IMG/VR virus record: IMGVR_UViG_3300023223_000133
Span: 1-35,957 of that record
Strand: one strand, 5' to 3'
DNA: 35,957 nucleotides
Source of the DNA: a virus
Program-made: the position numbers and the translations under genes
Notes under the pieces: generated by a model
What the model saw: only the letters and a program-made list of their open reading frames with translations
The model's database searches: none
Told to the model about the DNA's origin: nothing
Shown here: one piece after another, positions 7,934 to 35,957 of the stretch
Layout of the letters: every line of letters starts with the position of its first letter
Numbering within the stretch: the first letter of the stretch is position 1

Positions 7934-8025
7934 AACCCCTCCAATTATCCCACATAATACAAATACAAATGCTAACAGATACATCTAGCATAAAGTAAAC
8001 CGCTAAGTCAGTCATTGCTAATTGA

Positions 8026-8145
8026 TCAAGCATAAGGTGCAGTCCATGCAGATATGCTAAAAATCAAAGCAAGAGTTATTAACAAGCAGCCTAATACTAT
8101 TCTTGAGTAGTGTAAAAGGTTTGGTGTAATACTTAATTTGCACAT
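8026..8145 (-). CDS. Small hydrophobic peptide (39 aa), below the ORF-track cutoff
   Basis: ATG 8145 sits 5 nt after an AAGGAGAG RBS. MCKLSITPNLLHYSRIVLGCLLITLALIFSISAWTAPYA contains one TM segment. It occupies the small-gene slot between the DUF1367-like and YbcO-like genes. Confidence 0.45.
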   Translation of the reverse strand: MCKLSITPNLLHYSRIVLGCLLITLALIFSISAWTAPYA

Positions 8146-8156
8146 GTTAACTCTCC

Positions 8157-8600: not shown

Positions 8601-8998
8601 TTTAACAACTCAGGGTGCTGATGAACATTACCTATGACTTCAGGTCTAAACGCATCAACTATTATTTGCAAGCAACCGTCACCAGATGTAAAGCCACAAC
8701 CTTGATATGATACCTCTTCATTTACACGGCCCGCATCATAAGCGCAATTAATTTCATGACTTAAAATATCACCCTCATAAATATCAACGCCATTCTTATC
8801 GGTTAACCCTGTGAATTGCATTATATGAAAGTTAGCATCTTCTTCAATCCTAGCTAAAGACTCCCATAACCTAGTAAAAGCACCTGAACTAGTTGTTCTT
8901 ATTTCGGTATCAGGCTCGTCATACCCATATTGATTAACTCCGCTCATCATGGAGTTTCTTTCAGTGTTAAAAACTCTAAATTTAATTACTCTACTCAT
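8597..8998 (-). CDS. YopX family protein
   Basis: IKFRVFN ... MQFTGLTDKNGVDIYEGDIL is the characteristic YopX signature. Confidence 0.8.
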   Translation of the reverse strand: MSRVIKFRVFNTERNSMMSGVNQYGYDEPDTEIRTTSSGAFTRLWESLARIEEDANFHIMQFTGLTDKNGVDIYEGDILSHEINCAYDAGRVNEEVSYQGCGFTSGDGCLQIIVDAFRPEVIGNVHQHPELLK

Positions 8999-9225
8999 TA
9001 AAACTTTCTCCCTTGATTAACTAAGCTAGTTCTTAACACCCATTTATCACCTTCACGATAAACACAATGCGACTTCATATCAGTATCAAGTAGGTATTTA
9101 GCAAGCTTGCCACGGCTAACGCATAACTCTTTGGCCAGTACCGATTGATTGCCCTTGTAGTACGGAGTTAATAAAATCTCCTGTACGCTGTAAATATTAA
9201 CTTGTCTCAAAACTTTCCCCATCAA
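8998..9225 (-). CDS. Small protein with a possible HTH (75 aa)
   Basis: QSVLAKELCVSRGKLAKYL looks like a helix-turn-helix. TAATG coupling to the yopX-like gene. Confidence 0.5.
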   Translation of the reverse strand: MMGKVLRQVNIYSVQEILLTPYYKGNQSVLAKELCVSRGKLAKYLLDTDMKSHCVYREGDKWVLRTSLVNQGRKF

Positions 9226-9264
9226 TTGATTGTGTGACTAATAATAGAGCAATTTGCTAGATAG

Positions 9265-9570
9265 TCAAGCAGACAGGTTAATTATTTCATCTTCTAGCTT
9301 TTGGCAATACTTCTGCAATGCTATGTGTTCGCTACACCCAATATCATGAGCGTTAAGTTTGAAATGTTTAGCTAGTGCGATAACGTCCCTTTTATAAAGG
9401 TCGATAATTGAACCGCAAAAACCTGAAGATTCAAAATAGTCAGGGTAAGTCAGCTCGACATAATCACCACAATCACTAACTTTATTATCATCTGTAGTAA
9501 ACTTGTGAATTTCAATACCTGCATATTCTGGCGTTATACGACCACTAAATAAATTAACTGATTCTTTCAT
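9265..9570 (-). CDS. Hypothetical protein (101 aa), paralogue of 10234..10458
   Basis: Shares HKF and DVIALAKHFKLNAHDI with the 74-aa protein (DVIALVKHFGLTAEDI). Confidence 0.6.
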   Translation of the reverse strand: MKESVNLFSGRITPEYAGIEIHKFTTDDNKVSDCGDYVELTYPDYFESSGFCGSIIDLYKRDVIALAKHFKLNAHDIGCSEHIALQKYCQKLEDEIINLSA

Positions 9571-9581
9571 GTTATTCTCAC

Positions 9582-9776
9582 TTATTTATAAGGTTTTAAT
9601 TTCTTCTTTACGCGAATAATTGACCACTTAGTAACAAGCTCCTTTGCTCGTTCAATATTCTTCGGATCATTCATAAGCCGCTCAATATCATCTTCATCTT
9701 TACACTTGTATGATATTAATTGTTCAAGCGTTGCCTGTTCAAAATCAGTTAGTGGAAAATCAAAAGATGATTGCAT
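9582..9776 (-). CDS. Hypothetical protein (64 aa)
   Basis: Co-oriented ORF in the tightly packed early operon. No family recognised. Confidence 0.5.
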   Translation of the reverse strand: MQSSFDFPLTDFEQATLEQLISYKCKDEDDIERLMNDPKNIERAKELVTKWSIIRVKKKLKPYK

Positions 9777-9789
9777 TACATTACCCTTA

Positions 9790-10194
9790 CTAGTTATTGA
9801 TGTTATTTAACTTACGACCAGCACGAGTTATTGCGCCTCTTATCTGCCCTAGCTTATTGCCGACAGTACCCATTTCAACCTTTAGCTTTCTGGCATTTAC
9901 ACAGTGTTGACAGCCGTACATGTGCAAGACTTCTTCATAGCTATAACCTTCAGGCCATTGAGCATCACGGTTTAATATATTAACAGCCCGATAAGCCAAG
10001 CCCGGGCAATATTCAATAGCTTTATCAAGTTCATTTAATTTATCGTCACCAGTAAATACCTCACTAAAATCCATATCCTTTTCATTGTGGTTTGATAATT
10101 CAACGCCAATCTTGCGCTTTAAGTCGCGCTTTAAGTCTGAGTAAATAGCGTGTTTTGATAATAGGCTTTCTAACTGATTCATAACATCTCTCAT
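9790..10194 (-). CDS. Hypothetical protein (134 aa)
   Basis: Co-oriented ORF. An alternative start at 10182 (MNQLESL) is possible. No family recognised. Confidence 0.55.
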   Translation of the reverse strand: MRDVMNQLESLLSKHAIYSDLKRDLKRKIGVELSNHNEKDMDFSEVFTGDDKLNELDKAIEYCPGLAYRAVNILNRDAQWPEGYSYEEVLHMYGCQHCVNARKLKVEMGTVGNKLGQIRGAITRAGRKLNNINN

Positions 10195-10233
10195 TAGTTA
10201 ATATTGTAAGCTACTGCTGTTATGCAATAGCTG

Positions 10234-10458
10234 CTATTTGATATCTTCAGCAGTCAATCCAAAATGTTTAACCAGTGCAATAACGTCACCCTTATCTATT
10301 TCAAATCTAACCTCATCCCCATCTTCACGCTCATCTGAATCACTGTAAAAAGCATCTGTAAAATAAATACTTAAATCATCACCTTTCGATGGCTCAAGTG
10401 TATTTAACTCTAATTGCGTATCGCTAAACTTATGCGCTGAAATATCGGTCATCTTCAT
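10234..10458 (-). CDS. Hypothetical acidic protein (74 aa), first gene of the leftward early operon and paralogue of 9265..9570
   Basis: The shared C-terminal motif is given under 9265..9570. A promoter lies immediately upstream. Confidence 0.6.
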   Translation of the reverse strand: MKMTDISAHKFSDTQLELNTLEPSKGDDLSIYFTDAFYSDSDEREDGDEVRFEIDKGDVIALVKHFGLTAEDIK

Positions 10459-12923: not shown

Positions 12924-13151
12924 ATGTATAACGACAACAGAATGGAAATAGAAAAGCAGTTTAAAAATGACATGGGCTTCACCATTGCTGAAGCCGAAAT
13001 TAAATTGAGAGGTATAAAAAGAAATAGCGATGAATTGTACGGGCTGAGATGTTCACTTAATGGTTTTTGCTCAACTACAAATGTAAAAATAAATCTAACA
13101 GGTGATGACAGATTAATCGTACAAGCAAGGATAGACGAATTAGAGCAGTAA
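12924..13151 (+). CDS. Hypothetical protein (75 aa)
   Basis: Starts 1 nt after the dnaB stop. No family recognised. Confidence 0.5.
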   Translation: MYNDNRMEIEKQFKNDMGFTIAEAEIKLRGIKRNSDELYGLRCSLNGFCSTTNVKINLTGDDRLIVQARIDELEQ

Positions 13152-13208
13152 CCGTGTCTAAGTGATACCTATGAAAAAAATAAATGTAAATAACAAAGGG
13201 ATTATAAA

Positions 13209-13394
13209 ATGATATTCAAATACTACACAGCTGAGTTAATTATGTTGAACGGCGAAAAACTAGAAGTACCGTCAATTACTATACAAACATGGTTCTTTCG
13301 TAATCCAATAAATGCAGTTGATATGATGAAAAATCAACTTGAGGCATGGGGCATTACTAATCATAGAATAATTAACTTGCGCAGAATCAAATAA
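13209..13394 (+). CDS. Hypothetical protein (61 aa)
   Basis: AAGGGA RBS upstream of the ATG. No family recognised. Confidence 0.45.
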   Translation: MIFKYYTAELIMLNGEKLEVPSITIQTWFFRNPINAVDMMKNQLEAWGITNHRIINLRRIK

Positions 13395-13420
13395 CACTAA
13401 CTATTTAAAGAGGGTAAGCA

Positions 13421-13615
13421 ATGAATCAAAAACACTTGGTAAGCAATCTTCTAGATTGTATTGAAAATGAAATGTATACATTGGAAGGATCTAACGATGC
13501 TCAAAGGCAAGATGTGCATATGCGAAAAGAGGCTAAAAAAGCACTTAGAGAATTATTGCCAACAGTACAATCCGTAATATTAAAGCACTTTAATAACGGG
13601 CAATTTAACACCTAA
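13421..13615 (+). CDS. Hypothetical protein (64 aa)
   Basis: AGAGGG RBS upstream of the ATG. No family recognised. Confidence 0.45.
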   Translation: MNQKHLVSNLLDCIENEMYTLEGSNDAQRQDVHMRKEAKKALRELLPTVQSVILKHFNNGQFNT

Positions 13616-13635
13616 TAAACATATAAAGGAAAACA

Positions 13636-13737
13636 ATGAAACACTACGCAAAACAGATTAAAGAAAACGAAACTAAACTAGCGGCGGCGATGGAAGTAGG
13701 CGAGGATGAACAAGCCAAGACTTCAAGCTGCCATTGA
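13636..13737 (+). CDS. Small coiled-coil ORF (33 aa), apparently interrupted by a +1 frame change (the continuation ends at 13771)
   Basis: AAGGAAAA RBS. MKHYAKQIKENETKLAAAMEVGEDEQAKTSSCH stops at 13735-13737. The next frame continues sensibly as LQAAIDDYKQMQKQVK. Confidence 0.35.
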   Translation: MKHYAKQIKENETKLAAAMEVGEDEQAKTSSCH

Positions 13738-13813
13738 TGATTATAAGCAAATGCAAAAACAGGTTAAATAAACATGATATACTAACTACGCAAACAGGAT
13801 TACCCGACAAACC

Positions 13814-13841
13814 AAAAAGCTATCATCGCGATAGCTTTTTT
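13814..13841 (+). terminator. Rho-independent terminator ending the replication operon
   Basis: aaaaagctatc-atcgc-gatagcttttt followed by t. The A-run/T-run symmetry makes it potentially bidirectional. Confidence 0.75.
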
Positions 13842-13856
13842 ATTGGGTGAAATATA

Positions 13857-13960
13857 GCTAGAATTTTCTGTGAATTTTTCGCAACACGTTGAGCTCACTT
13901 TAAACTATTGATTTAACTTATAATTTTACTGTGAAAATACGCTAGAATTTCTGTGTGAAA
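13857..13960. repeat. Iteron-like direct repeats in an untranscribed AT-rich gap
   Basis: GCTAGAATTTTCTGTGAA (13857-13874) and GCTAGAATTTCTGTGTGAAA (13941-13960) are 84 bp apart, with a third CTGTGAAAA core at about 13930. Terminators bracket the gap on both sides. Confidence 0.6.
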
Positions 13961-13970
13961 ATTTGGCAAT

Positions 13971-14000
13971 AAAAAAGACCGCTATAACTGCGGCCTTTTT
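13971..14000 (-). terminator. Rho-independent terminator ending the leftward 16140->14044 operon
   Basis: On the minus strand: aaaaaggccgc-agttata-gcggtctttttt (one mismatch in the stem, strong T-run). Confidence 0.6.
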
Positions 14001-14043
14001 AATTTAATATTCAAGTATGTTACATATAATCTATAACAAGTAA

Positions 14044-14400
14044 TCAACCATTGTTAGCATCCTCTCTAAGTCCTGCAATTATAGCATCTAAGCAATTAAA
14101 GCAATCTACACCTCTAGTAAGCCCTTTTATTCTTCTGTTAGCAAACTCTATAGTATCAGCTTTAACTTTATTATGTAAAGCTACACAGTCAGGACAGTCC
14201 ATTGAGTCAAATATATTGCCAACCATTCCATGACCATCACACATTTGGCAAACACGCTTACGATAACCATCAACCTCATTAGTTAACGCTTTGTTTTCAG
14301 CATGTAGCATTTTATTTTCCGCTATAGTATCAAGCGCCTTTTTCTGGAATGAATTAGATGACTCTACCCATTTTATTAATTGAATTTCATCGTCTTTCAT
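14044..14400 (-). CDS. Coiled-coil protein with a DnaJ-type CxxCxGxG zinc motif (118 aa)
   Basis: CQMCDGHG ... CPDC, with an N-terminal heptad-like region. Confidence 0.55.
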   Translation of the reverse strand: MKDDEIQLIKWVESSNSFQKKALDTIAENKMLHAENKALTNEVDGYRKRVCQMCDGHGMVGNIFDSMDCPDCVALHNKVKADTIEFANRRIKGLTRGVDCFNCLDAIIAGLREDANNG

Positions 14401-14860
14401 TATTCGCCCCTTGCTTTAGATTTCTGTGTAATTCCAAATGATGCTTTCTGCATAACCATCTAACATCAATTGGCTTGTCGTAATCATCGTGATGCGCGTC
14501 TACTTTCTTACATCCGCAAACCTCGCAATCACCCCTTATCAATCTACCACTTTTAATTTCCGCCCTTGCCTTTCTTCTTGCTTTTTCCTTATAAAGATTT
14601 ATAGGGTCTTTCATTCTTTCGTAAAAGCCAGCCAAAGCCCTTTTCTTTACCTCTGGTCTTTTTGAGTACTCGATCTGGTAATTTACATGGTACTCTCTAC
14701 CCATTGCTACCCCACTAACAGGAAGTCCTTTGCTCTTCCTTTTGTTCCTGTTACTAATCCCCTCGGTCTTTCTGCATGGTTTGCATATGTAGTTCCTTTT
14801 CTTTATGGCTGATTCGCTTGGGTTGTATATATCGCCGCAAACCCTGCAAGTGTGACTCAT
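14387..14860 (-). CDS. HNH-like zinc-binding protein (157 aa)
   Basis: The C-terminal CEVCGCKKVDAHHDDYDKPIDVRWLCRKHHLELH matches the AHHxDYxKPLxVxWLC..CH motif common in phage HNH-type proteins. The N-terminus has CRVC...CKPC. Confidence 0.65.
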   Translation of the reverse strand: MSHTCRVCGDIYNPSESAIKKRNYICKPCRKTEGISNRNKRKSKGLPVSGVAMGREYHVNYQIEYSKRPEVKKRALAGFYERMKDPINLYKEKARRKARAEIKSGRLIRGDCEVCGCKKVDAHHDDYDKPIDVRWLCRKHHLELHRNLKQGANNERR

Positions 14861-15120
14861 ATATCACCACGGGCCTTGGCCAGTAAATTATCAATATAAC
14901 TTGCTTGGTGGTTATCTCTAAATACTGCGCTTTTTGATAGTGATAGTAGAGCTAGATACATATCAGGAGCAGCAGCTATTAAATGTGCGTTGGCTTTGTT
15001 GTTGCCGTAATAATCTAAGTCACAAACTCGACTACTTTTAGTGGTATCCATTAGCGAGGATACACTGTAAGACCCTCTACTCATCCCGACTTGCCACTTA
15101 CCTTTAGTAAATTCAGTCAT
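14857..15120 (-). CDS. Hypothetical protein with a conserved phage motif ANAHLIAAAPDMY (87 aa)
   Basis: The motif is widespread in phage hypothetical proteins, from memory. ATGA coupling. Confidence 0.55.
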   Translation of the reverse strand: MTEFTKGKWQVGMSRGSYSVSSLMDTTKSSRVCDLDYYGNNKANAHLIAAAPDMYLALLSLSKSAVFRDNHQASYIDNLLAKARGDI

Positions 15121-15350
15121 TAGTGATTGCCTTGTAAGTCATATTGGTCAAAGTAAGTCGCACTATCAACATCAGCAGCTAATATAGCATCCTCTTTATC
15201 ATTCATATGAGTACGAACCTCTGCTGCATACTTACCATGTGAGCTGGACATATGCGTATTACGTTTAGTATTCGCGCCAGCATTAATTATTTTTAAGCAA
15301 TTACTTAATGTATCGTTATTGTTTAAGTGGCATTCTTTTGATTCGTTCAT
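15120..15350 (-). CDS. Hypothetical protein (76 aa)
   Basis: TAATG coupling on both sides. Confidence 0.5.
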   Translation of the reverse strand: MNESKECHLNNNDTLSNCLKIINAGANTKRNTHMSSSHGKYAAEVRTHMNDKEDAILAADVDSATYFDQYDLQGNH

Positions 15351-15940
15351 TATGATTTAACCTCTAGTAATTGAATGTTAGTACAGTGAATAGGGTTGAA
15401 GGTGTGGTTATCAAACTGAAACTTACCGATAAATTCGTTATATCTCATTGCTACGTTATTCATGCCGGATGAACCATTGTGATAATCAAACTGATAAGCC
15501 TTACCATCTATTAGCTCTATAGGTGGGGTTAGTGGTTTAAATTTAAGGTGTGTATTTGATTGTGAATATTCAGTACCACCATGAACCCAAACAGTATTAC
15601 TTATACCAACGAATGATATTACACCTTTGTAATACTCATCATTATAGGCGTCATCCCTAATCAAGCACTCCATACCTACTATCGGCATTACTCCGTTAAC
15701 AGACATTATTTGCGTGTATATGGGTGTAACTGGCTTAATCCATTCCGCTTTACTCATTTCCTCTACGCATTGATTGAATTTTTCAACGGTGAAAGATGTT
15801 ACTGAATTACCTTTTTGGTAGTCAGCATCGTTACTATAAAACCCATAGCCATTTGCACCTGAAACGTAATACATTACAAGTGAGTTACTGTAAGGCCAAA
15901 CAGATTCGAGCTTATTTATCGCGTCTACTAATTTACTCAT
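15350..15940 (-). CDS. Hypothetical protein (196 aa)
   Basis: Coupled ORF in the early operon. No family recognised. Confidence 0.6.
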   Translation of the reverse strand: MSKLVDAINKLESVWPYSNSLVMYYVSGANGYGFYSNDADYQKGNSVTSFTVEKFNQCVEEMSKAEWIKPVTPIYTQIMSVNGVMPIVGMECLIRDDAYNDEYYKGVISFVGISNTVWVHGGTEYSQSNTHLKFKPLTPPIELIDGKAYQFDYHNGSSGMNNVAMRYNEFIGKFQFDNHTFNPIHCTNIQLLEVKS

Positions 15941-16140
15941 TATCCTTCTCCCTTAGTGAAATCAATATTCACATTTAAAAATATACAAACCGATTTAAGG
16001 TCATTGTATCGACATGTACCATCATCCTTTAGTATACGTCTAACTATGTAAGTACTAACGCCACAGCCATCACTTAGCTCGACTGCTCCGACAATACCTT
16101 TATCAACCATTGCTTTTTTCAATACGTTTGCAAACTTCAT
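15940..16140 (-). CDS. XRE/Cro-type helix-turn-helix transcriptional regulator (66 aa)
   Basis: LKKAMVDKGIVGAVELSDGCGVSTYIVRRILKD...LKSVCIFLNVNID fits the XRE HTH layout. It is the first gene after a divergent promoter region containing palindromic operators. Confidence 0.7.
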   Translation of the reverse strand: MKFANVLKKAMVDKGIVGAVELSDGCGVSTYIVRRILKDDGTCRYNDLKSVCIFLNVNIDFTKGEG

Positions 16141-16183
16141 TTTATGCCTCTTATTTATAGTGGTGTGTTACTTGATGCAGTAA

Positions 16184-16211
16184 TATTATAACTAAATGGC
16201 AAGGATTGCAA
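16184..16211 (-). promoter_or_regulatory. Sigma70-like promoter for the leftward early operon
   Basis: On the minus strand: TTGCAA, 16 nt, TATAAT. Confidence 0.55.
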
Positions 16212-16226
16212 ATTAAAGCTTGCAAT
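16205..16226. promoter_or_regulatory. Operator-like perfect inverted repeat ATTGCAA-N8-TTGCAAT
   Basis: Each arm supplies the TTGCAA -35 hexamer of one of the two back-to-back promoters. Confidence 0.6.
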
Positions 16227-16247
16227 AGTTATTTATTAGTCTAGTAT
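16220..16247 (+). promoter_or_regulatory. Sigma70-like rightward promoter (module A)
   Basis: TTGCAA, 16 nt, TAGTAT. Confidence 0.45.
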
Positions 16248-16253
16248 TAACCA

Positions 16254-16358
16254 CTCAAGAGGAATGATGATTTAAAACAACTGGAGGAATTGATTATGTA
16301 ACGCAAGGGTAACGCCCTAGAGATTCACAACCTCCCACCCGCTTAATTGCGGGTTTCT
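16254..16358 (+). ncRNA. Candidate short terminated leader transcript / sRNA (module A)
   Basis: The predicted start lies about 7 nt after the -10. The transcript contains GGAGG (16283-16287), then an ATG-TAA start-stop pair 8 nt later (16296-16301). It also contains a CCTCC (16331-16335) able to pair with the GGAGG, and ends in an intrinsic terminator. Confidence 0.3.
16337..16358 (+). terminator. Intrinsic terminator-like hairpin inside the early rightward leader
   Basis: acccgc-ttaatt-gcgggt followed by ttct. Confidence 0.5.
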
Positions 16359-16380
16359 GGGTAGTAGAGTATGTATATTT

Positions 16381-16439
16381 GAGTGCATTGTTCGCTGCTT
16401 AATATCCTATACGGTGCACTAAATATGGTTCGGTGCACT
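16381..16439. promoter_or_regulatory. Three GTGCAYT boxes around a possible second promoter
   Basis: The boxes are GAGTGCATT (16381-16389), CGGTGCACT (16412-16420) and CGGTGCACT (16431-16439). TTGAGT-15 nt-TAATAT (16379-16405) overlaps box 1. Confidence 0.4.
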
Positions 16440-16473
16440 CAACTATACAAATTAATAACAAGTGAGAGTTAAT

Positions 16474-16659
16474 ATGACTGACTTTGAGCAACAAGCTAAA
16501 CGAGCAGGGCAAATACATCTTAATGCAAAGATTGACGCACTAGCTGAAATGCTAATTGAAATTGAAGATGAAGATTACAGTACGGTTCACCAGGTAAAGG
16601 GCGCGATAAGAAGCCGCATTGAATTACTAACAAGTATTAAGGAAACTGAAGATGAATAA
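16474..16659 (+). CDS. Hypothetical protein (61 aa)
   Basis: ATG 16474 lies after GTGAGAG. The track start 16462 is a GTG. Confidence 0.5.
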   Translation: MTDFEQQAKRAGQIHLNAKIDALAEMLIEIEDEDYSTVHQVKGAIRSRIELLTSIKETEDE

Positions 16660-16798
16660 TTACCATGATCAATCAGAAAGTTGCCCGGCTGAATGCCCTG
16701 AGTGTTTTTCATCAATGACTGAAGAAGAAGAAAAAGGCTGCAAGTTTAATATTTGTGATAATGATAAATGTAAATATACAGTAGAGATAGGTGAGTAA
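16652..16798 (+). CDS. Small zinc-ribbon protein (48 aa), below the ORF-track cutoff
   Basis: MNNYHDQSESCPAECPECFSS...KGCKFNICDNDKCKYTVEIGE has CxxC-type pairs. It overlaps both neighbouring genes. Confidence 0.45.
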   Translation: MNNYHDQSESCPAECPECFSSMTEEEEKGCKFNICDNDKCKYTVEIGE

Positions 16799-24504: not shown

Positions 24505-26607
24505 ATGGCAAACATATCAGAAGATAAACTCTTAAGTGTCGTTAACTCGAAGCAGGTTGATGCAGAAACCAACCGAAACAGAATCCAAAGAGATAATGAG
24601 TTTTTAGAAAGGCGGTATAACGCTGAGTATTACGGTACAGAAGTACCGGGCCGTTCTCGATTTGTATCTAATGATGTTAAAGATGCTGTTGAATCTGCTC
24701 ATGACTCATTAGTCAGAATGTTTTTGGGTGCCGGTTCTATAATTAAATTCACAGCAAACAATCCTGAAGATAAAGCACAGCAAACAGAAGCAGAAGAAAA
24801 AACAGCGTTTATTGATTGGCTGGTAAGAGGTCAAACTAACTCATATAAAACACAATCATCATTCTTAACTGAGGTGTTAAAGTTTAGAGCTGGTGTGCAA
24901 AAATACTTTTATGAAGAAACCGAGTCAACTGAAGATCATGCTTGGGAAGGTTTAACCGTTATAGAGGTCGCAGAGCAATTAATTGCCATGGGCTTTTCAA
25001 TAGAACTTACAGAGGGTGCTGAATTTTCTGAATTAGTTTCATCTGCTAAAACCAAAGAAGGTAAGATTGTTTCTCACAATGAGAATGATGATGGCACCTT
25101 TGATATTAAAATCAGAGTTAAAACCACACGGCAAGAAATTAAACTAATCACAGTCCCCACTGGTTCGTTCTTACTATCGACAGGTGCAACTGATTTAGAT
25201 GATGCTGAGCTAGTTGGTGATGAGTCATTTAAAACTAGGGGTGAGCTGTTATCAGAAGGGCATAGCCGCGAATTAGTTGAGAAACTACCGTCTGCATCAA
25301 TCAATGGCGAGATTGCAAGAACAATAACATCAGATGTTTTAGGTAATATCGCACAGTCAGACTTTAGCGAGTGGGCTAGCCAATTAGTTCCTATTGCTGA
25401 CTTGTATGTAAAGGTTGATTATAACAACGATGGCATTGCAGAGCGCCGACACATTCAGAAATCTAACGATCATATATTATTTAACGAACCGTTTGACCAT
25501 GTACCTTACGCAACAGCATCAGCCTTGATAGTCCCTAACGCTGTCATTGGTGAAGGTTGGGGCGAGCAGGTAGTAGATATACAAGAAGTTAACACAGCTA
25601 TTACTCGCGGTACCTTAGATAACATCTATGCTGTAAACAATACTAAGAAGGTTGTCAGAGTTGGCAAAAATGGCGTTAACCTTGACGAAGTATTATCCCC
25701 AGGTATCGGCGGTGTTATCCAAGCAACCGGTGATGGGCCGTTACTTGATAAGGTTGTGCCATTGGTTACAGAGTTTATTGGTGATAAAGCATTACTGATT
25801 AAACAACATATGGATCAAATGAAATCGTTGCGTGTTGGCGGTCAATTAGCCTCGCAAGGTTTAGACGGTAATAAATTAGCTGAAGAGTCGGCGACCCGCT
25901 TTACCGGCATAGAGAAAACCGACCAAGCCAAAGTTGAGAAGATAGCCCGTAACGTTGTCGAGATGGGTTACCGTAAAATTTATGAAGGTGTTGCATGGTT
26001 AGCTGCTCACTTCCAAATGGATGAGGTTGAGTTTAATGTATTAGGTAAGACACTAACCGCTAATCCTGCTAACTGGAAACATGACAGTAATGTAGCTACA
26101 GAGGTCGGCCTTGGCTCTGGTGACAATGAAAAGGTTGTCGAGAATATGTCGGGCATGTGGCAAATTCATCAAGCTAACAAGGCGGCAGGCTCACCATTAA
26201 CCGATGAAAAGAAAGGCTATAACATCCTTAATAAGATGTATAAAGCTTTAGATATTAAAGACACATCACTTTATATTAATGACCCTGAAGAGCCAAGCGA
26301 ACAATTACGCGTTGATAACGAGCAATTAAACTCTATGGTGCTTCAAATGCAACAAGCTATGGAAGCACAAGCCGAACAGATTAAGCAGCTACAGGCGCTA
26401 TCTGAGGTTGAAACAATCAAAGTACAAGCTAAAGCCGAATCTGATAACAAGAAAGCCGCGCTTGATATTGCAGAGTTACAGGAAAATCAACGTCAATTTA
26501 ATATCACGACAGCACAGAAGGGAAACAAACAAACAGAAGATACCGCCGTTAAACTAACTGAACTAGAAGTTAAAAGCGGTGTGGATATACCAGGTAGTGC
26601 AGTTTAA
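24505..26607 (+). CDS. Portal protein (700 aa) with a long C-terminal coiled-coil barrel-like tail
   Basis: It starts 1 nt after terL, and its size and position are typical. The C-terminal LNSMVLQMQQAMEAQAEQIKQLQAL...AALDIAELQENQ resembles the helical barrel of P22-type portals. Confidence 0.8.
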   Translation: MANISEDKLLSVVNSKQVDAETNRNRIQRDNEFLERRYNAEYYGTEVPGRSRFVSNDVKDAVESAHDSLVRMFLGAGSIIKFTANNPEDKAQQTEAEEKTAFIDWLVRGQTNSYKTQSSFLTEVLKFRAGVQKYFYEETESTEDHAWEGLTVIEVAEQLIAMGFSIELTEGAEFSELVSSAKTKEGKIVSHNENDDGTFDIKIRVKTTRQEIKLITVPTGSFLLSTGATDLDDAELVGDESFKTRGELLSEGHSRELVEKLPSASINGEIARTITSDVLGNIAQSDFSEWASQLVPIADLYVKVDYNNDGIAERRHIQKSNDHILFNEPFDHVPYATASALIVPNAVIGEGWGEQVVDIQEVNTAITRGTLDNIYAVNNTKKVVRVGKNGVNLDEVLSPGIGGVIQATGDGPLLDKVVPLVTEFIGDKALLIKQHMDQMKSLRVGGQLASQGLDGNKLAEESATRFTGIEKTDQAKVEKIARNVVEMGYRKIYEGVAWLAAHFQMDEVEFNVLGKTLTANPANWKHDSNVATEVGLGSGDNEKVVENMSGMWQIHQANKAAGSPLTDEKKGYNILNKMYKALDIKDTSLYINDPEEPSEQLRVDNEQLNSMVLQMQQAMEAQAEQIKQLQALSEVETIKVQAKAESDNKKAALDIAELQENQRQFNITTAQKGNKQTEDTAVKLTELEVKSGVDIPGSAV

Positions 26608-26642
26608 TCTTATTTTAAATAGGAGGTGATTCATCTACACGC

Positions 26643-26670
26643 AAAACCCTCTAGAATGAGGGTTTTTTAT
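26643..26670. terminator. Strong rho-independent terminator after the portal gene, probably also closing the convergent cassette
   Basis: aaaaccctc-tagaat-gagggtttt followed by ttatt. Confidence 0.8.
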
Positions 26671-26831
26671 TGGTTACCATTCATTAAACTTTCTAATAAT
26701 ATTACATGGTAGGGATAAGGGTGATATTAGTAACATTTTAAAACAATGCTTAACACCTAGGTATGGATCAAACACCAACCATTTTAAGCACCAAAAGAGC
26801 ATAATCACATAACTAATAAATACATATTCAA

Positions 26832-27128
26832 TCATTCCTCATCACTCCCAATAATTACTTTACCTATAATTTTATAATCACGGCGCTGATATGGCATCCA
26901 ATCAGTAGTCCTAGTTATCCCTGTCATAACGTCTGAACTCATGGAGCTAATCTCCAAAAGAGAATCGTACAACCTCCTATTTAAATCAAAACTGTACCAT
27001 TCTAGGGAGTGCTTATTGTTATTCTCAACAATTAACAACCCGTTATTGTAAAACTTAACCTTTGGCTTTTTATCTCTATTGACTTTTTCGGCCCACTTAC
27101 CAACCGCGTTAAAAATTCCTATATTCAT
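26832..27128 (-). CDS. Cassette gene 9, hypothetical (98 aa)
   Basis: ATGA overlap with the upstream small ORF. No family recognised. Confidence 0.6.
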   Translation of the reverse strand: MNIGIFNAVGKWAEKVNRDKKPKVKFYNNGLLIVENNNKHSLEWYSFDLNRRLYDSLLEISSMSSDVMTGITRTTDWMPYQRRDYKIIGKVIIGSDEE

Positions 27129-27274
27129 AACCCTAACCCTATCCTTACAGCCTTACACACAAGGCTGAGCCTAATTGAATAAACAGGAGTCTTACAGCTA
27201 CCCCTGCTACCACGTTTCACCCTAATTACTGGCTTTTGTATGAATGCCACTAATGGAAGTGCTGCCATATTCAT
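27125..27274 (-). CDS. Cassette gene 8, small basic peptide (49 aa), below the ORF-track cutoff
   Basis: Translated by hand: MNMAALPLVAFIQKPVIRVKRGSRGSCKTPVYSIRLSLVCKAVRIGLGL. TAATG overlap upstream and ATGA overlap downstream fill what would otherwise be a 145-nt gap. Confidence 0.4.
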   Translation of the reverse strand: MNMAALPLVAFIQKPVIRVKRGSRGSCKTPVYSIRLSLVCKAVRIGLGL

Positions 27275-27459
27275 TAGCCTTTACCCCACCAAAGAGCAGC
27301 ATTAGCAATACTCATTTGTGTAATTATAAGATTAACCCCGGTGTTGATAGCGTCCTGTTTAGCTTTATGTTTCGCCATAGATTGATAATGCTTTAGCCTC
27401 TGTTCGCGGTTCTCAGCTTCGAGCTTCAGTATGTATTCAGCCATTCCTGATTGAGTCAT
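27274..27459 (-). CDS. Cassette gene 7, hypothetical (61 aa) with a hydrophobic C-terminus
   Basis: ATGA overlap upstream. ...GVNLIITQMSIANAALWWGKG. Confidence 0.55.
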   Translation of the reverse strand: MTQSGMAEYILKLEAENREQRLKHYQSMAKHKAKQDAINTGVNLIITQMSIANAALWWGKG

Positions 27460-27791
27460 TCTATTTCCCCATTGTTAAACATTGTCACAACCTTGTTAGC
27501 TTGCTCGTTGACTAACCGGTAAAAGAATGATTTCTTATTCCTGATATCAATACCCTTTGCAATATCCTTCTTAGCTGCTGCTAGTAAGGTATCTTCAAGC
27601 AATTCGAGTATAGCCTCATCATCTTCAAGTAAAGCTTTAGTTACCTTATACTTAAAGCTATCACCCTCTAAGCGGCTAACCTTCTTTGTTAGGTTATCAT
27701 TTAGTAATCTCAAAGCGTCAATAGTATCATTGGCGCAAGATAGGTCAGATGTTAAGGTTTTAATAAGCAACTTACCTTTACTGAAAAACAT
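27456..27791 (-). CDS. Cassette gene 6, coiled-coil protein (111 aa)
   Basis: It abuts the upstream stop (TAA then ATG). Heptad-like LRLLNDNLTKKVSRLEGD. Confidence 0.6.
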   Translation of the reverse strand: MFFSKGKLLIKTLTSDLSCANDTIDALRLLNDNLTKKVSRLEGDSFKYKVTKALLEDDEAILELLEDTLLAAAKKDIAKGIDIRNKKSFFYRLVNEQANKVVTMFNNGEIE

Positions 27792-27905
27792 TTAATACTC
27801 CTCGTAAACGTCAACATCAATACCGAAAGCTAATGCAATCTTGTTTATAGCTTCGATTGCTAGTTGCTCGCTACCTAACTCTTCTATAAGTTTGTCGATA
27901 TTCAT
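27792..27905 (-). CDS. Cassette gene 5, acidic peptide (37 aa), below the ORF-track cutoff
   Basis: MNIDKLIEELGSEQLAIEAINKIALAFGIDVDVYEEY. AAGGTGGTGG RBS and an ATGA overlap upstream. Confidence 0.45.
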   Translation of the reverse strand: MNIDKLIEELGSEQLAIEAINKIALAFGIDVDVYEEY

Positions 27906-28054
27906 AGCACCACCACCTTAACTACTGGCATTGTCCACATCATCACAGCTATCACCGCTATAGCAATCACTGAAACTATCAGCATTCTGCGAGTTGTCTT
28001 CTCATACTCTGCTATCTTTACGCGTTGTTCTTCTGCTTTTTGTTGGTTATTCAT
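27902..28054 (-). CDS. Cassette gene 4, single-TM peptide (50 aa), below the ORF-track cutoff
   Basis: Translated by hand: MNNQQKAEEQRVKIAEYEKTTRRMLIVSVIAIAVIAVMMWTMPVVKVVVL. ATGA overlaps at both ends. Confidence 0.5.
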   Translation of the reverse strand: MNNQQKAEEQRVKIAEYEKTTRRMLIVSVIAIAVIAVMMWTMPVVKVVVL

Positions 28055-28416
28055 AGTCCGTGACCCTCTTCAAATTGTGATAGGTCGATACATGCAAGCC
28101 TTGTTGTTTTGTTCGACTCATTATCGGCGACCTCTCTGGTTGCGTGTATTGGTGATTCACAGTACCTACTAGCGTAAATATTAATAAACCCACTAAGCTT
28201 TTTAGGTGCCATGAAAAGGTCGCCACCACACTCATTGGTGCCCTTGTGATAATTACCAGCAACAAACCATTGTTCAACATGGTCGTTATCAACATCATAC
28301 CCGTAAAGTATAGGGTCGTTAGTATGATTGAATACATGGAATTGCGTAACCTCGCGCCCGTCTCTAGTCACAACCTTGTCACCCGCTAATGCTTTTTCTA
28401 AATCGAATTTATCCAT
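28051..28416 (-). CDS. Cassette gene 3, hypothetical (121 aa)
   Basis: MDKFDLEKALAGDKVVTRDGREV...GGDLFMAPKK resembles a widespread phage hypothetical family (from memory). The overlapping ORF 28047..28337 is rejected. Confidence 0.65.
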   Translation of the reverse strand: MDKFDLEKALAGDKVVTRDGREVTQFHVFNHTNDPILYGYDVDNDHVEQWFVAGNYHKGTNECGGDLFMAPKKLSGFINIYASRYCESPIHATREVADNESNKTTRLACIDLSQFEEGHGL

Positions 28417-28540
28417 TATTCTTATCCTTTTGATTTAATCGCCATTGTTTAACCCTACACGCTGAGCTGCATACTTTTGCATCTTCGCGCACAGGTTGAT
28501 CTTTCTTCTTGCATACAGGGCAGTCTATTAATTTAGTCAA
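28409..28540 (-). CDS. Cassette gene 2, Cys4 zinc-ribbon peptide (43 aa), below the ORF-track cutoff
   Basis: Translated by hand: (TTG)MTKLIDCPVCKKKDQPVREDAKVCSSACRVKQWRLNQKDKNNG. The CPxC-x13-CSxxCR pattern is a common phage zinc ribbon. It has 8-nt overlaps at both ends. The non-ATG start lowers confidence. Confidence 0.4.
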   Translation of the reverse strand: MTKLIDCPVCKKKDQPVREDAKVCSSACRVKQWRLNQKDKNNG

Positions 28541-28973
28541 AATTTAAGCTATCCCAATAGTCAGGTCTACCACAATCAATCACATCAAAATCTTCAGTTA
28601 AATCTTTGATTGCCCCGTATGCACTCTTAGCTTTTACCATGGCGAATTCAGCGTGACCTATTTGTGACAACTTTCTTTTTTTATACGAATGCAAAGCCTC
28701 TTTCTTTGTTGGGTAACAGAAGCGCCTCATACTATCTTTTGATACCCTTCTTGTTTTGGGTATCCTGTCAGGGTTTCTTTTTTGTATCAACATAGACCAA
28801 TGATCAATCACCATATAAAAACAAGGAGTCTCGCGCACAGGATAAAGCCTTCTAACTCTAACCTCTATCCCATCCTCGCTAATGTAATCATCGTAACGGT
28901 AATGAATGGGCAGGTCATTTAATTTTTCCTCATCATTCACCAACCTTAGCCCATCAGTAATTTTGTCTCGCAT
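28533..28973 (-). CDS. Cassette gene 1, hypothetical basic protein (146 aa)
   Basis: GGAG RBS and a promoter upstream. RRVSKDSMRRFCYPTKKEALHSYKKRK resembles a motif seen in many phage hypotheticals. No function known to me. Confidence 0.65.
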   Translation of the reverse strand: MRDKITDGLRLVNDEEKLNDLPIHYRYDDYISEDGIEVRVRRLYPVRETPCFYMVIDHWSMLIQKRNPDRIPKTRRVSKDSMRRFCYPTKKEALHSYKKRKLSQIGHAEFAMVKAKSAYGAIKDLTEDFDVIDCGRPDYWDSLNFD

Positions 28974-29001
28974 ATTTTATCTCCATTGATTAATTGCCTC
29001 A

Positions 29002-29029
29002 AGTGTAACGCATATCCGTTTCAAGTCAA
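29002..29029 (-). promoter_or_regulatory. Sigma70-like promoter of the counter-oriented cassette
   Basis: On the minus strand: TTGACT, 16 nt, TACACT, ending about 29 nt upstream of ATG 28973. Confidence 0.5.
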
Positions 29030-29035
29030 CACTAT

Positions 29036-29064
29036 TTGTTAATTAAATTGCAATGCTGTATAAT
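29036..29064 (+). promoter_or_regulatory. Sigma70-like rightward promoter (module B) with ATTGCAAT in its spacer
   Basis: TTGTTA, 17 nt, TATAAT. The palindrome ATTGCAAT lies at 29047-29054. Confidence 0.5.
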
Positions 29065-29070
29065 TGGTTT

Positions 29071-29199
29071 TGCGGTGTGAAGACCGTTTAAAAAGACAGC
29101 TGGATAGGGTATTTAGACATGTGATCTTTGGTGGGTTTAGTTACACATCAACTGTCGCCCCTCTTCAACAGAGGTTACATGATCTAAGTACCCTTTTTT
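29071..29199 (+). ncRNA. Candidate structured, terminated transcript (module B), about 130 nt
   Basis: A long imperfect hairpin pairs 29107-29127 (GGGTATTTAGACATGTGATCT) with 29172-29193 (AGGTTACATGATCTAAGTACCC). TTTTTT follows immediately (29194-29199). There is no credible ORF or RBS. Confidence 0.35.
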
Positions 29200-29585
29200 G
29201 TATCTAGTATAAGTTAGGCCATAACCGAATTTAAACTATATACAAAGCACATGTAGAACCTAGGAATGATGACAGGTAGTATAATCGACTACCCGCATGT
29301 GCAACCCTTTCAAAGCATCTTCACACAGCCGAATTTTCTCGGTTATCGTAAAAAACCTTAATCAAGCTAACGATTATAATTAGCAAATATCGAATACTTA
29401 GTATTAATCGACTTTTAGACACGAGAATAAACAGCATTTTCTGCATGGTATATGGCTTGGGCAGCCAACAAGGATTGTGAATAGCTAGCTGATACTGATT
29501 TAATACTACTTGATATAAACTAAGCACACTTACTCATCCATGCAGTAACGTGTCTAATGATACTTATTGCCAATAATTAGCATAT

Positions 29586-29614
29586 TTGACCAACCAACTA
29601 TTAAAGAGTAAAAT
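29586..29614 (+). promoter_or_regulatory. Sigma70-like promoter proximal to the head operon
   Basis: TTGACC, 17 nt, TAAAAT, ending 37 nt upstream of ATG 29652. Confidence 0.45.
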
Positions 29615-29651
29615 AAACTCACACCATATTTGAATAACCTTTAGGACTCAA

Positions 29652-29945
29652 ATGAGAAACGAAACAGAACTAGCGGCTGATATTACTAACGCTAAACAAG
29701 CTGAAGCAATAGTAAATCACCCGTTATTCATCGCATCAATTAAATCGTTAAGAGCAGTAACGATTGATAAGTTTGAAAACCTGGGGTTTGAAGATACAAC
29801 GCAAATGCGAGAATGCAACATTAGGCTGAACTTAATAGAAGAACTTGAGATTAACCTATCAACAATTATCAGTAGTGGTAATGCAGCATTCAAAACATTA
29901 GAAGAGATTCAAACATTCAACCAGGAAATGCAAAATGAGCGATGA
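29652..29945 (+). CDS. Hypothetical head-module protein (97 aa)
   Basis: It is the first gene of the head operon and overlaps the scaffold gene start. Confidence 0.6.
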   Translation: MRNETELAADITNAKQAEAIVNHPLFIASIKSLRAVTIDKFENLGFEDTTQMRECNIRLNLIEELEINLSTIISSGNAAFKTLEEIQTFNQEMQNER

Positions 29946-34810: not shown

Positions 34811-35957
34811 TGGCTCAAGAAATAATCAACGTTGGCGGCGCAAATGAAAAACAAGGTGATACGCCTTTCGTGTTTTGCCCTAAAATAAACAGAAACTTTA
34901 CCGAGTTATTCACCATAAAACAGGCGTGCGTTAGTTACATTTACGAAGAGGCTGATTTTCCAGTGCAGGATGCTACAACTATAACACTACAAGCCGATGC
35001 AGCTTATTGTTTATGTGCCCTAATATCCACAGGAAAGAGGTTTATTGTTGAAGATAGTTCCTACATATGCGGAGTTACTCAAACTGTTCCTATGCTTGAA
35101 TATACCGGCACTGGCGTAATGTTCACATCGACAACAGTATGGACTCTTGAAAATCTTGGTTTTACTTGCCCTAATGGAACGGTTTTCAGTCACACCGGCG
35201 CTGGCCAGTTTATAATAATGAGAAACTCAACCTGTTCCAATTGTTTAAATATTGGCACCATAAACTCAAGCGGTTATTTCTCAACAGGCAGCAGTTTTGT
35301 TAATATCACAGGTGCAGGGTTAACCTTTACCGGTGCTAATAACGGGTTCTTATACGCTACTGGTAACATGATCACCTCATCAGCATCAACCACTATTGTT
35401 GACTTTGGCACTGCTACATTCTTTTTAATGCGGGTATTAGATTCCACATATGCGGGGCCACCTGGCGCGGTTGCATTCTCAGGATTACCGGACGGCGCTA
35501 ATATAAACTCAGGCAATAAAGGTGTATTTGAAGTAAATGATTTACAGTCTGGTGGAATAACTCCTATGGCTGGAATGTCACCATCAGACATTAGAATGGC
35601 GGTTAGATTTTCAGATGGGCTAATGGACTCTCGAAACGCTGCTGATATGTTCATGGTTGGCGGCTCTGAAACAATAACGATCGGAGGCTCTAACGAATGG
35701 AATGAAATCGGAGTACCAAGCGGCGGCGGTGTATCTTGGGATAGCGATATAAGTGACAGGTTTACCATAGGTACTGATGGTGTTTTAACCTACATCGGAG
35801 AGGATGATATAGAGGTCACATTAACGGGCAGGGCTACTATTGAAAAGACAGGCGGCGGCTCTGATGTGTTGGAGGTTCGCTTTGCTGTTAATTGGAATGG
35901 AACGGTAAGTGATGGCGGCTTGGAGAAATCAAGAGCGCAAACACAAAACACAACCCC
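34810..35957 (+). CDS. Tail protein, possible second receptor-binding protein; 5' part of a 424-aa gene that continues at 1..271
   Basis: I read the frame from ATG 34810 codon by codon and found no stop before the window end. The ORF track misses it because it has no in-window stop. Its G/T/S/N-rich repetitive strands suggest a beta-helix-like fold. The minus ORF 35274..35768 is its antisense shadow. Confidence 0.75.
   Translation, partial: MAQEIINVGGANEKQGDTPFVFCPKINRNFTELFTIKQACVSYIYEEADFPVQDATTITLQADAAYCLCALISTGKRFIVEDSSYICGVTQTVPMLEYTGTGVMFTSTTVWTLENLGFTCPNGTVFSHTGAGQFIIMRNSTCSNCLNIGTINSSGYFSTGSSFVNITGAGLTFTGANNGFLYATGNMITSSASTTIVDFGTATFFLMRVLDSTYAGPPGAVAFSGLPDGANINSGNKGVFEVNDLQSGGITPMAGMSPSDIRMAVRFSDGLMDSRNAADMFMVGGSETITIGGSNEWNEIGVPSGGGVSWDSDISDRFTIGTDGVLTYIGEDDIEVTLTGRATIEKTGGGSDVLEVRFAVNWNGTVSDGGLEKSRAQTQNTT
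35814..35957. repeat. Second copy of the 144-bp terminal direct repeat
   Basis: Identical to 1..144. Confidence 0.95.

Follow-up and report, generated by a model that had tools for sequence, protein, structure and literature searches.

What occupies the 3 kb between the portal gene and the head-assembly genes in the virus genome IMGVR_UViG_3300023223_000133 (35,957 nucleotides, analysed at full length and called here the window)? A first-pass annotation described this region as nine small, counter-oriented, coupled genes splitting the portal-scaffold junction of a P22-type phage, and suggested an undescribed system with the architecture of a moron, anti-defence or superinfection-exclusion module. 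Having compared the locus with its relatives, we consider it highly probable that positions 26608-29628 constitute a dispensable, horizontally exchanged accessory-gene island, located at the boundary between the portal gene terminator and the head-operon promoter.

Ten coupled ORFs on the minus strand

The nine minus-strand open reading frames (ORFs) described in the first-pass annotation are all present at the coordinates assigned to them and their eight junctions are correct (overlaps of 8, 8, 4, 4, 0, 4, 1 and 4 nt), but the count was incomplete, as a tenth coupled ORF, c10 (26674-26835), had been overlooked. It is joined to c9 by a ninth junction, an ATGA at 26832-26835 (4 nt). The cassette is composed as follows:

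28533-28973, minus strand: c1, 146 aa, first gene of the cassette
28409-28540, minus strand: c2, 43 aa, TTG start
28051-28416, minus strand: c3, 121 aa
27902-28054, minus strand: c4, 50 aa
27792-27905, minus strand: c5, 37 aa
27456-27791, minus strand: c6, 111 aa
27274-27459, minus strand: c7, 61 aa
27125-27274, minus strand: c8, 49 aa
26832-27128, minus strand: c9, 98 aa
26674-26835, minus strand: c10, 53 aa, last gene of the cassette

The chain covers every position of 26674-28973 (2300 of 2300 nt). Coupled chains obtained by chance had at most three ORFs (300 shuffles), and those in the antisense of the other gene blocks of the window had one or two. Nearly all ORF starts are preceded by a Shine-Dalgarno (SD)-like motif and the GC skew changes sign over the cassette block. 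Four of the descriptions given earlier, a Cys4 protein, a single-transmembrane (TM) peptide, a 37-aa acidic peptide and a 49-aa basic peptide, agree with composition and hydropathy; the putative coiled-coil protein would correspond to c6. A 96-aa ORF in an alternative frame (28047-28337, minus strand) was rejected, since it appears conserved elsewhere merely by its overlap with conserved c3 DNA and the codon score favours the c3 frame.

The insertion site in related phages

Seventeen relatives, with portals 66-84% identical to that of the window, were recovered from IMG/VR and metagenomes. Comparison of their portal-scaffold junctions, proposed in the first-pass annotation as a check, revealed presence, absence and replacement of the insert (L-numbers denote loci fetched for comparison, 42 in total):

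L012, L010, L011, L004 and L020: gap between portal stop and 97-aa gene start of 71-131 bp, empty site
L001, L002 and L009: gap of ~530-550 bp, helix-turn-helix (HTH)-like protein and one more gene
L007: gap of 1.0 kb, HTH-like protein, TM peptide, "GFDV" family protein and a c10 homologue (c10')
L006: gap of 1.6 kb, Phd/YefM protein (Pfam, 1.5e-11), a c1 homologue (c1'), 40-aa ORF, GFDV protein and 100-aa ORF
L005 and L018: gap of 1.7 kb, a single 488-aa GNAT-like gene, plus strand
L003: gap of more than 3 kb, DNA methyltransferase (phrog_757, 9e-72), TM peptide and homologues of c2, c3 and c4 (c2', c3', c4'); a second cassette ends in a c10 homologue (c10')
Window: gap of 3.04 kb, ten-ORF cassette and non-coding module

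Homology with all relatives ends at the portal stop codon and restarts at 29608-29629. The five relatives with empty sites have portals 66-79% and capsid proteins 71-92% identical to those of the window. The portal gene was said to be followed directly by the scaffold gene in P22-type phages; this does not hold for the present lineage, as even the insert-free relatives have a conserved 97-aa gene after the portal gene (29652-29945 in the window, where it is followed by the genes for the scaffold, phrog_3927, the major capsid protein, phrog_212, and connector proteins). A terminator-like hairpin with a T-run follows the portal gene in the empty sites of L010 and L011, and in every empty site a TATAAT box is retained at constant spacing from the 97-aa gene start, which together indicate that the site is a natural operon boundary; portal and head-assembly genes appear to be separate transcription units in this lineage. 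An insert that is absent, present or replaced in relatives supports its accessory nature and does not fit a universally conserved virion or assembly component.

The replacement cassettes are tightly packed too, with wholly different contents. Besides an HD hydrolase and a Phd/YefM domain protein, related cassettes hold two mutually unrelated DNA methyltransferases (phrog_757 at 9e-72, phrog_954 at 4e-79); the small HTH-like proteins of some of them have no Pfam confirmation. This gene pool of orphan methyltransferases, a Phd-like protein, an HD hydrolase, small DNA-binding-like proteins and membrane peptides is typical of early, nin-type, counter-defence or exclusion accessories.

Two observations on the relatives are recorded here. 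The 488-aa gene of L005 (2229-3695, plus strand) and L018 is on the same strand as the head genes and has a weak match to GNAT acetyltransferases (E=0.0017); its product may be an internal or ejection-type protein. The GFDV family (N-terminus M(N)NxEKKLDALIDALGFDV, variable C-termini, 63-157 aa) is found in L003, L006, L007, L022, L026 and L035, in same-hotspot cassettes of several lineages; the window lacks it, and neither Pfam nor PHROGs gave a match.

Composition of the cassette

Homologues were found for nine of the ten cassette ORFs, the exception being c8, so that the conservation of small ORFs considered in the first-pass annotation is observed for all but one of them. No other locus has more than three of the ten genes in common with the window. 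The families occur singly or in other combinations, orders, orientations and positions in unrelated phages, and only c2-c3-c4 and c5-c6 travel as units. Given this low number of common genes and the widely differing contexts, the cassette is, as judged by sequence comparison, a patchwork array (c1 / c2-c3-c4 / c5-c6 / c7 / (c8) / c9 / c10) and not one co-inherited system. The suggestion of a single nine-gene undescribed system is thus not supported.

The c1 protein belongs to a small, well conserved phage family, with 24 metagenomic homologues besides that of the window, and corresponds to phrog_13631 (E=8e-17), a family of unknown function. Its AlphaFold 2 (AF2) model has a predicted local distance difference test (pLDDT) score of 84, and the same fold is predicted for 14 uncharacterised phage proteins (BFVD). 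The genes of c1 homologues are mostly found in lambdoid early or nin-type regions (beside DnaC-like, DUF1376, lambda-P-like, NinG, Dam and other methyltransferase genes), and one adjoins the packaging genes of a Mu-F-type phage (L014). In L006 the c1 homologue (58% identical) is preceded by the Phd/YefM protein, which raised the idea that c1 is the toxin of a Phd-type toxin-antitoxin pair; this was rejected, as five other c1 contexts have no antitoxin. A type II toxin-antitoxin arrangement was seen neither in the window nor in the other c1 contexts examined, the Phd/YefM protein being found only in L006.

The c2 protein is a Cys4 zinc ribbon (four Cys, pI 9.5) with a basic tail (...KQWRLNQK...) and sub-threshold Pfam matches to the NinG N-terminus, DUF2116 and zf-C6H2. 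Homologues are present in L003, L025, L035, L036, L037 and L027, and c2 is the only protein found in all six loci that have the block of divergent promoters described below (PL/PR). Loci that have the RNA element of this region with another promoter (L028, L041 and L042) encode a 61-71-aa HTH-like protein instead of c2. We hypothesize that c2 may be a regulator of the divergent cassette promoters.

The c3 protein has more than 320 homologues and represents a mostly marine phage family of unknown function. The precomputed Pfam annotation of P0026 (identical to c3) and of many homologues lists PF26890 (Phage_HP1_YO09), flagged as "weak", while the local Pfam scan of c3 gave nothing. Its AF2 model (pLDDT 93) has a beta-rich fold, with just a vague resemblance to SH3, Tudor and WYL-like barrels in Foldseek comparison with the PDB (none at E<=0.001), and its N-terminus has a weak PHROGs match to a family labelled "kinase". 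The contexts of c3 homologues are diverse: between NinH and NinG in a phage with P22-gp7; in a counter-oriented cassette at the head-tail gene junction of a siphophage, with a methyltransferase before and an HD hydrolase after; and, together with a c4-like peptide and c10, beside a different terminase in another phage. By hydropathy, c4 is a single-pass membrane peptide; its homologues are 93% (L028) and 76% (L027) identical, and related TM peptides follow the c3 homologues in L003, L025 and L029.

The acidic c5 (pI 4.1) has the best per-codon codon score of the cassette. In L022, whose portal is 41% identical and whose cassette, with c5-c6 and c10, lies between terL and the portal gene, a c5 homologue (79% identical) is directly followed by a c6 homologue (71% identical) in the same abutting arrangement, and c5-c6 is therefore a conserved gene pair. 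The c7 protein has a moderately hydrophobic C-terminal segment and matches, with 64% identity, the C-terminal part of a 106-aa ORF from a different phage (L026). There the ORF is situated between the genes for portal and scaffold and is co-directional with both, and the accessory genes of L026 in general share the strand of the head genes. No homologue of c8 (pI 11.5) was found, including in IMG/VR. The c9 ORF has a positive codon score and five weak homologues (best E 3e-12 and 8e-10), none of them in IMG/VR, with the core KPxxKFYSNGLLIV...SLxWYSFDL in common. The hydrophobic c10 is the most widely shared member of the cassette and always the terminal gene: its homologues are the last gene in L001/L002, L003, L007, L021, L022 and L029/L030 (91% identical in L029/L030).

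Promoters and terminator

The cassette is flanked by the following predicted signals and non-coding elements:

26643-26666: hairpin terminator separating c10 (stop at 26674) from the convergent portal gene (stop at 26607)
28985-29050: TTAATTAA-type palindromes (GATTAATTGC, GTTAATTAAAT)
29002-29029, minus strand: PL, sigma70-type promoter, TTGACT-16-TACACT
29036-29064, plus strand: PR, TTGTTA-17-TATAAT, 10 of 12 matches, divergent from and back-to-back with PL
29065-29203, plus strand: RNA-A, a predicted RNA of ~135 nt with a 5' hairpin, a long terminator hairpin, a U-run and a covarying long-range/pseudoknot helix
29314-29600, plus strand: element B, ~250-290 nt, non-coding, with two nested covarying long-range helices, its 3' end overlapping the promoter of the 97-aa gene
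29586-29614, plus strand: resident promoter of the 97-aa gene/scaffold/major capsid operon, TTGACC-17-TAAAAT, at the right edge of the insertion

The PL/PR block is 81-85% identical in L003, L025, L035, L036 and L037, where the -35 and -10 hexamers of PL are kept and the spacer varies. This is the pattern expected of a functional promoter and supports PL beyond its match to the consensus. PR is nearly invariant in L003, L025, L035 and L036. The palindromes overlap the PL leader and the PR spacer and are kept in the same four loci; they are possible operator sites. The hairpin at 26643-26666 is indeed situated so as to serve both the portal gene and the cassette, as had been proposed, with a good T-run on the plus strand and merely four T on the minus strand.

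RNA-A and element B

To the right of the cassette, ~680 bp (28975-29651) contain no credible ORF and form the most conserved part of the island. This mobile module is composed of the divergent PL/PR promoters, RNA-A, element B and the resident promoter of the 97-aa gene.

Several lines of evidence point to a folded RNA-A. Its fold has a z-score of -6.1, and across nine loci 90.8% of cells are paired, against 31-47% when the partners are slid by one to three columns, a pairing score reached by none of 500 shuffles. Compensatory changes affect six of the ten pairs of the terminator stem. A 6-bp helix, X-X' (TGAAGA/TCTTCA in the window, with X at 29078-29083), connects the loop of the 5' hairpin with the interior of the terminator hairpin; it is paired in nine of nine sequences, and five of its six pairs are changed on both sides. 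With a covariance model, R1, built from the nine-locus set, further copies were found in L031, L033/L034, L040, L041 and L042, among them new complementary versions of X-X' (TAGAAAG/CTTTCTA and TGGAAG/CTTCCA, in L031 and L033). Altogether, RNA-A (~110-140 nt) is present in at least 15 of the 42 loci fetched (including L003, L025, L028, L031, L033/L034 and L035-L042), in phages with unrelated structural genes, and the long-range helix of 6-7 bp, of which nine or more complementary versions exist, shows covariation in all copies inspected. We regard RNA-A as a well-supported candidate for a structured RNA family of marine phages not recognised before.

Element B, of which nhmmer found 12 copies (the window and 11 other loci), is 80-96% identical in at least seven loci, whose phages are unrelated in their structural genes, and exceeds every cassette protein in conservation. 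Both of its helices occur in several complementary versions, helix I as TTAGACACG/CGTGTCTAA, TTAGAAGCG/CGCTTCTAA, TTAGATACG/CGTATCTAA and ATGACCG/CGGTCAT, and helix II as CTGCATGG/CCATGCAG, GTCATGG/CCATGAC and CTGCAAGG/CCTTGCAG. The G-U pairs favour the plus strand as the one that would be transcribed. A 68-aa minus-strand ORF at 29321-29527 was discarded as a gene, having a negative codon score and indels among homologous copies.

In Rfam, 26400-29800 had no match at E<=1, the window at full length had none reaching the gathering score, and the module had none in seven other loci. ARAGORN found no tRNA genes in the module, and blastx against the pool of cassette proteins found no pseudogene remnants in 29030-29660. 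In two other loci, T-loop-like motifs (GGTTCGAATCC, GGTTCGATTCC) are observed between RNA-A and element B (L035, ~4330-4460; L038, ~3790-3870). The tRNA genes that they suggest were not found by ARAGORN either, and the motifs may be tRNA remnants or RNA tertiary-structure motifs.

In all loci but L003, RNA-A and element B point toward an adjacent, co-directional downstream gene: the 97-aa gene in the window, the portal gene in L035, a head-tail connector-like gene in L025, L037, L038 and L041, and nin-type early genes in L031. The module is also found without a divergent cassette (L039) and, in L031, within the early region, downstream of a c1 homologue. The lambdoid-like phages have a c1 homologue followed by RNA-A on the same strand (L031 4001-5026, L033 4001-4795 and L034 44-838), with element B in L031 as well. 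Since c1 adjoins RNA-A in the window, in L031 and in L033/L034, this proximity of c1 to the RNA module is seen in three independent arrangements.

Searches for protein function

Scans of all ten proteins against Pfam, NCBIfam and PADLOC gave nothing above noise; the only PADLOC matches were of c6 to LmuA/LmuB, at noise level (E=0.003-0.006, 14-15 bits). In PHROGs, the cassette proteins had no match in the anti-defence category and no structural match above noise, and the Pfam scan detected no HTH domain in any of the ten. The fold comparison suggested in the first-pass annotation was carried out for c1 and c3: the AF2 models are confident, but Foldseek gave no PDB match at E<=0.001, and neither single-sequence nor profile searches found sequence relatives of the two proteins in the PDB. 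Function can accordingly be approached from context alone. The reading of the locus as a moron, anti-defence or exclusion module therefore stands as regards an accessory island, and not as regards an anti-defence or exclusion role, which is a surmise from context.

Phage lineage and genome context

The window is a complete phage genome of ~35.8 kb, as indicated by an exact 144-bp terminal direct repeat (1-144 and 35814-35957), and is circularly permuted or terminally redundant. Its portal is only ~26% identical to the portals of Vibrio VPp1-like podophages, Pseudomonas phage tf and LUZ24-like phages (e.g., MR299-2), and megablast found no nucleotide match to the region among 50,697 phage records; the premise of a P22-type phage is thus wrong. 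The host is probably marine and may belong to the Alteromonadales, to judge from binning of metagenome-assembled genomes (MAGs) and ~39% GC: relatives fell into the bins of Colwellia and other marine MAGs, and element B is carried by contigs of phage size in the bins of a Colwellia MAG and a "Robiginitomaculum" MAG. At 38-39 kb, the MAG contigs with related modules have roughly the length of a phage genome and show no sign of chromosomal integration. No integrase or repressor was detected among the ORFs scanned in the window, and a portal scan of 185,579 bacterial and archaeal genomes found no prophage relative.

DnaB, RecT, NinB/Orf, a Holliday-junction resolvase and an HNH protein are encoded elsewhere in the genome, which has two more counter-oriented clusters of small genes, most of whose remaining ORFs have no assigned identity:

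7197-10458, minus strand: Holliday-junction resolvase, HNH protein and NinB/Orf (nin-type early genes)
14044-15940, minus strand: second cluster, with an endonuclease-like protein

Two further features of the window were noticed. The segments 13151-14044 and 15940-16791 are non-coding (~850-900 bp each), with no ORF of 70 aa or more and no Rfam match at the gathering threshold. Among the tail/structural genes, 1056-1661 (plus strand) encodes a 201-aa protein with an Asp/Arg beta-hydroxylase domain (Pfam PF05118, E=4.6e-8), which is unusual in so small a phage.

Comparison with known systems

Morons are defined as extra DNA between genes that are adjacent in relatives, with their own promoter and terminator, and expressed from a repressed prophage (PMC3594210). 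Like HK97 gene 15 or lambda lom and bor, the island is extra DNA between otherwise adjacent genes (71-131 bp apart at the empty sites, 3.04 kb in the window), with its own promoter and terminator, here known at sequence level, and with horizontal spread. Unlike morons, which have one or two genes, a GC anomaly and expression from a prophage, it consists of ten coupled genes, has no GC anomaly and belongs to a phage for which our scans revealed no integrase, repressor or prophage relative; furthermore, it is headed by a conserved non-coding RNA module.

The regions of genomic plasticity of Pseudomonas Mu-like phages contain zero to six small ORFs at fixed sites, and the anti-CRISPR locus among the head genes of these phages has a conserved companion gene, g9/aca1 (PMC4378225). 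They have in common with the island a fixed hotspot in the morphogenesis region, small ORFs (34-100 codons) that differ between close relatives, and a conserved companion beside variable neighbours, the island companions being c10 and c2. The island differs in being counter-oriented, without homology to known Acr or Aca proteins in the Pfam and PHROGs scans and, in the window version, without an HTH protein. The acr-aca operons are likewise distinct in having the HTH regulator Aca, of which the Pfam scan gave no counterpart in the window cassette.

In the lambda nin region (NinB-NinH), small, dispensable and tightly packed genes of the same kinds are found, and nin-type regions are the actual residence of c1 and c3 homologues, beside NinG, NinH, Dam and other methyltransferases; a weak resemblance also links c2 to the zinc ribbon at the N-terminus of NinG. 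The island, however, lies within the packaging/head region, on the opposite strand and with its own promoter, and the nin-type operon of the window is a separate one (7197-10458).

The P22 immI/sieA region, between the ejection-protein and tailspike genes, also consists of accessory genes with their own promoters in a late region, with an exclusion function and the small RNA sar, which accompanies divergent or convergent promoters. It has no sequence or family relationship with the island, and the phage studied here is not P22-like. In lambda, the promoter PR', the short structured 6S RNA and the strong terminator tR' precede co-directional genes; RNA-A resembles this arrangement in having a constitutive-looking promoter, a short structured RNA and a strong terminator before co-directional genes. 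Its covarying short complementary segments recall the RNA regulators c4 of P1/P7 and CI of P4. RNA-A differs from 6S and C4 in having no Rfam match (the C4 family included) and no Q-like gene upstream, and in belonging to a module dispensable in close relatives; unlike in P1/P7 c4, P4 CI and lambda 6S, both complementary segments, X and X', are within one RNA of ~135 nt. Integron-like arrays have an integrase and attC sites, whereas the island genes overlap or abut, thus leaving no space for attC-type sites between them, and no integrase was found among the ORFs scanned. The island is best filed as a multi-gene, counter-oriented accessory island of the moron/plasticity-region type with a conserved RNA-bearing control module.

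Proposed model and alternatives

In the model that we favour, host RNA polymerase would transcribe the ten genes leftward from PL, early in infection, antisense to and independently of the morphogenesis genes, up to the hairpin that the cassette has in common with the convergent portal gene, and overlapping stops and starts would couple their translation. The cassette is assembled from at least six independently mobile pieces (c1, c2-c3-c4, c5-c6, c7, c9 and c10) of the marine phage gene pool, much of which normally resides in early, nin-type regions. Its products, among them the membrane peptides c4, c10 and perhaps c7, would most probably be directed at the host cell or at competing genetic elements, for takeover, counter-defence or exclusion, and not at the virion. 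The c2 zinc ribbon could be the operon's own regulator, acting on the divergent promoters, and the RNA-A terminator would keep transcription from PR out of the head operon, or release it under control. Exchange would probably proceed by recombination through the conserved flanks, c10 and the terminator on one side and PL/PR-RNA-A-element B on the other, possibly assisted by the phage's own RecT, NinB and resolvase functions. Of all this, the anatomy of the island, its dispensability, its mosaic distribution, the conservation of the promoter and the covariation in the RNA are observed, whereas expression timing, coupled translation, the functional class of the products, the part played by c2 and the route of exchange are proposals.

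Several observations speak against this model or parts of it. The sigma70-like promoter claimed for the cassette is present, with its hexamers conserved in at least five other loci, but its match to the consensus is not above chance: 12 bare consensus sites of this type were counted in the region, where 11.4 are expected, and at least one match to the specific PL pattern occurred in 34 of 100 shuffles. GC content over 26501-29000 (0.374-0.398) shows no anomaly relative to the flanks (0.36-0.42), unlike that of classical morons, and expression from a prophage, part of the moron definition, is unlikely because no integrase or repressor and no prophage relative were found. The c2-promoter block link comes from six loci only, some of them closely related. 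The codon log-likelihood of c8 is ambiguous and the evidence for this ORF is its position in the chain and an SD-like motif, so that c8 may not be a gene. No cassette protein has an annotated function or a solved structural relative, which makes a host-directed or counter-defence activity a guess from context, and early timing and translational coupling are read from the sequence.

Among the alternatives, the one nearest to the original suggestion is that the nine or ten genes form a single coherent, undescribed multi-protein system for anti-defence or superinfection exclusion, whose parts cooperate and are coupled for that reason. The unbroken packing, the single promoter and terminator, the recurrence of c2-c3-c4 and c5-c6 and the several membrane peptides would suit such a system; nevertheless, we find it very unlikely, considering that no other locus has more than three of the ten genes, that the families occur singly or otherwise recombined in unrelated phages, that the cassettes of relatives are tight as well, with wholly different contents, and that PADLOC gave no meaningful matches. 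That the small ORFs are instead assembly or virion accessory factors of the morphogenesis module, such as chaperones or decoration proteins, is extremely improbable: their position within the packaging/head region would be accounted for, but they are not the universally conserved components that this would imply, being absent from the five relatives with similar portals and capsids, they lie on the opposite strand with their own promoter, their homologues are found in early regions of other phages, and PHROGs gave no structural match above noise.

Another possibility considered is that a temperate phage carries the island as a classical moron, which its repressed prophage would express and from which the lysogen would profit, for instance by exclusion of other phages. 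The accessory reading shares with it the own promoter and terminator and the position between genes adjacent in relatives, which belong to the moron definition (PMC3594210), and both the small membrane proteins and the lambdoid-type early genes of the genome would be in keeping with a temperate moron. We consider it unlikely, given that no integrase, repressor or lysogeny module was detected in the ORFs scanned, that the portal has no relative in the bacterial and archaeal genomes, that there is no GC anomaly and that the MAG contigs with related modules are phage-sized, with no sign of integration. A comparably low probability is assigned to a relocated nin-type early block serving internal regulation, in which read-through into the head operon, or its timing, is governed by RNA-A and element B jointly with c1 and/or c2, and the host is not the target. 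The orientation of RNA-A and element B toward a downstream gene in all loci but L003 (a late gene where identifiable), the c1 homologues beside RNA-A in the window, L031 and L033/L034, the co-occurrence of c2 with the promoter block, and a layout of promoter, short terminated RNA and downstream genes resembling lambda PR'-6S-tR' are all consistent with such a role. On the other hand, close relatives express the head operon from an empty site, and the module is therefore not required; a divergent cassette is missing beside RNA-A and element B in L039, and in L031 both lie in an early region; most cassette genes (c3-c10) have no link with the RNA module beyond proximity. The exchangeable accessory island remains the explanation that we prefer.

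A further hypothesis regards the non-coding module itself as a portable phage regulatory RNA module of a new class, in which the terminator would be locked by the X-X' helix or compete with it, so that read-through from the island into the operon downstream, whichever it is, would be gated, with c2 or the HTH protein as partner; we hold this to be a speculative and rather unlikely proposal.

Implications

The cassette is a further, well documented example of a plasticity hotspot at a fixed site, in marine phages of a little-known lineage. The map of co-travelling genes (c2-c3-c4, c5-c6 and the terminal c10) provides a shortlist for anti-defence, exclusion and takeover screens, in place of ten orphan ORFs taken as one unit. 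The non-coding module is the part of the island most likely to repay work. If RNA-A controls termination or acts as a small RNA, it would be a new regulatory device that moves with accessory genes between phages, and, should the portable-module hypothesis be true, it would allow accessory cassettes to plug into any operon boundary of unrelated phages, leaving late-gene timing undisturbed.

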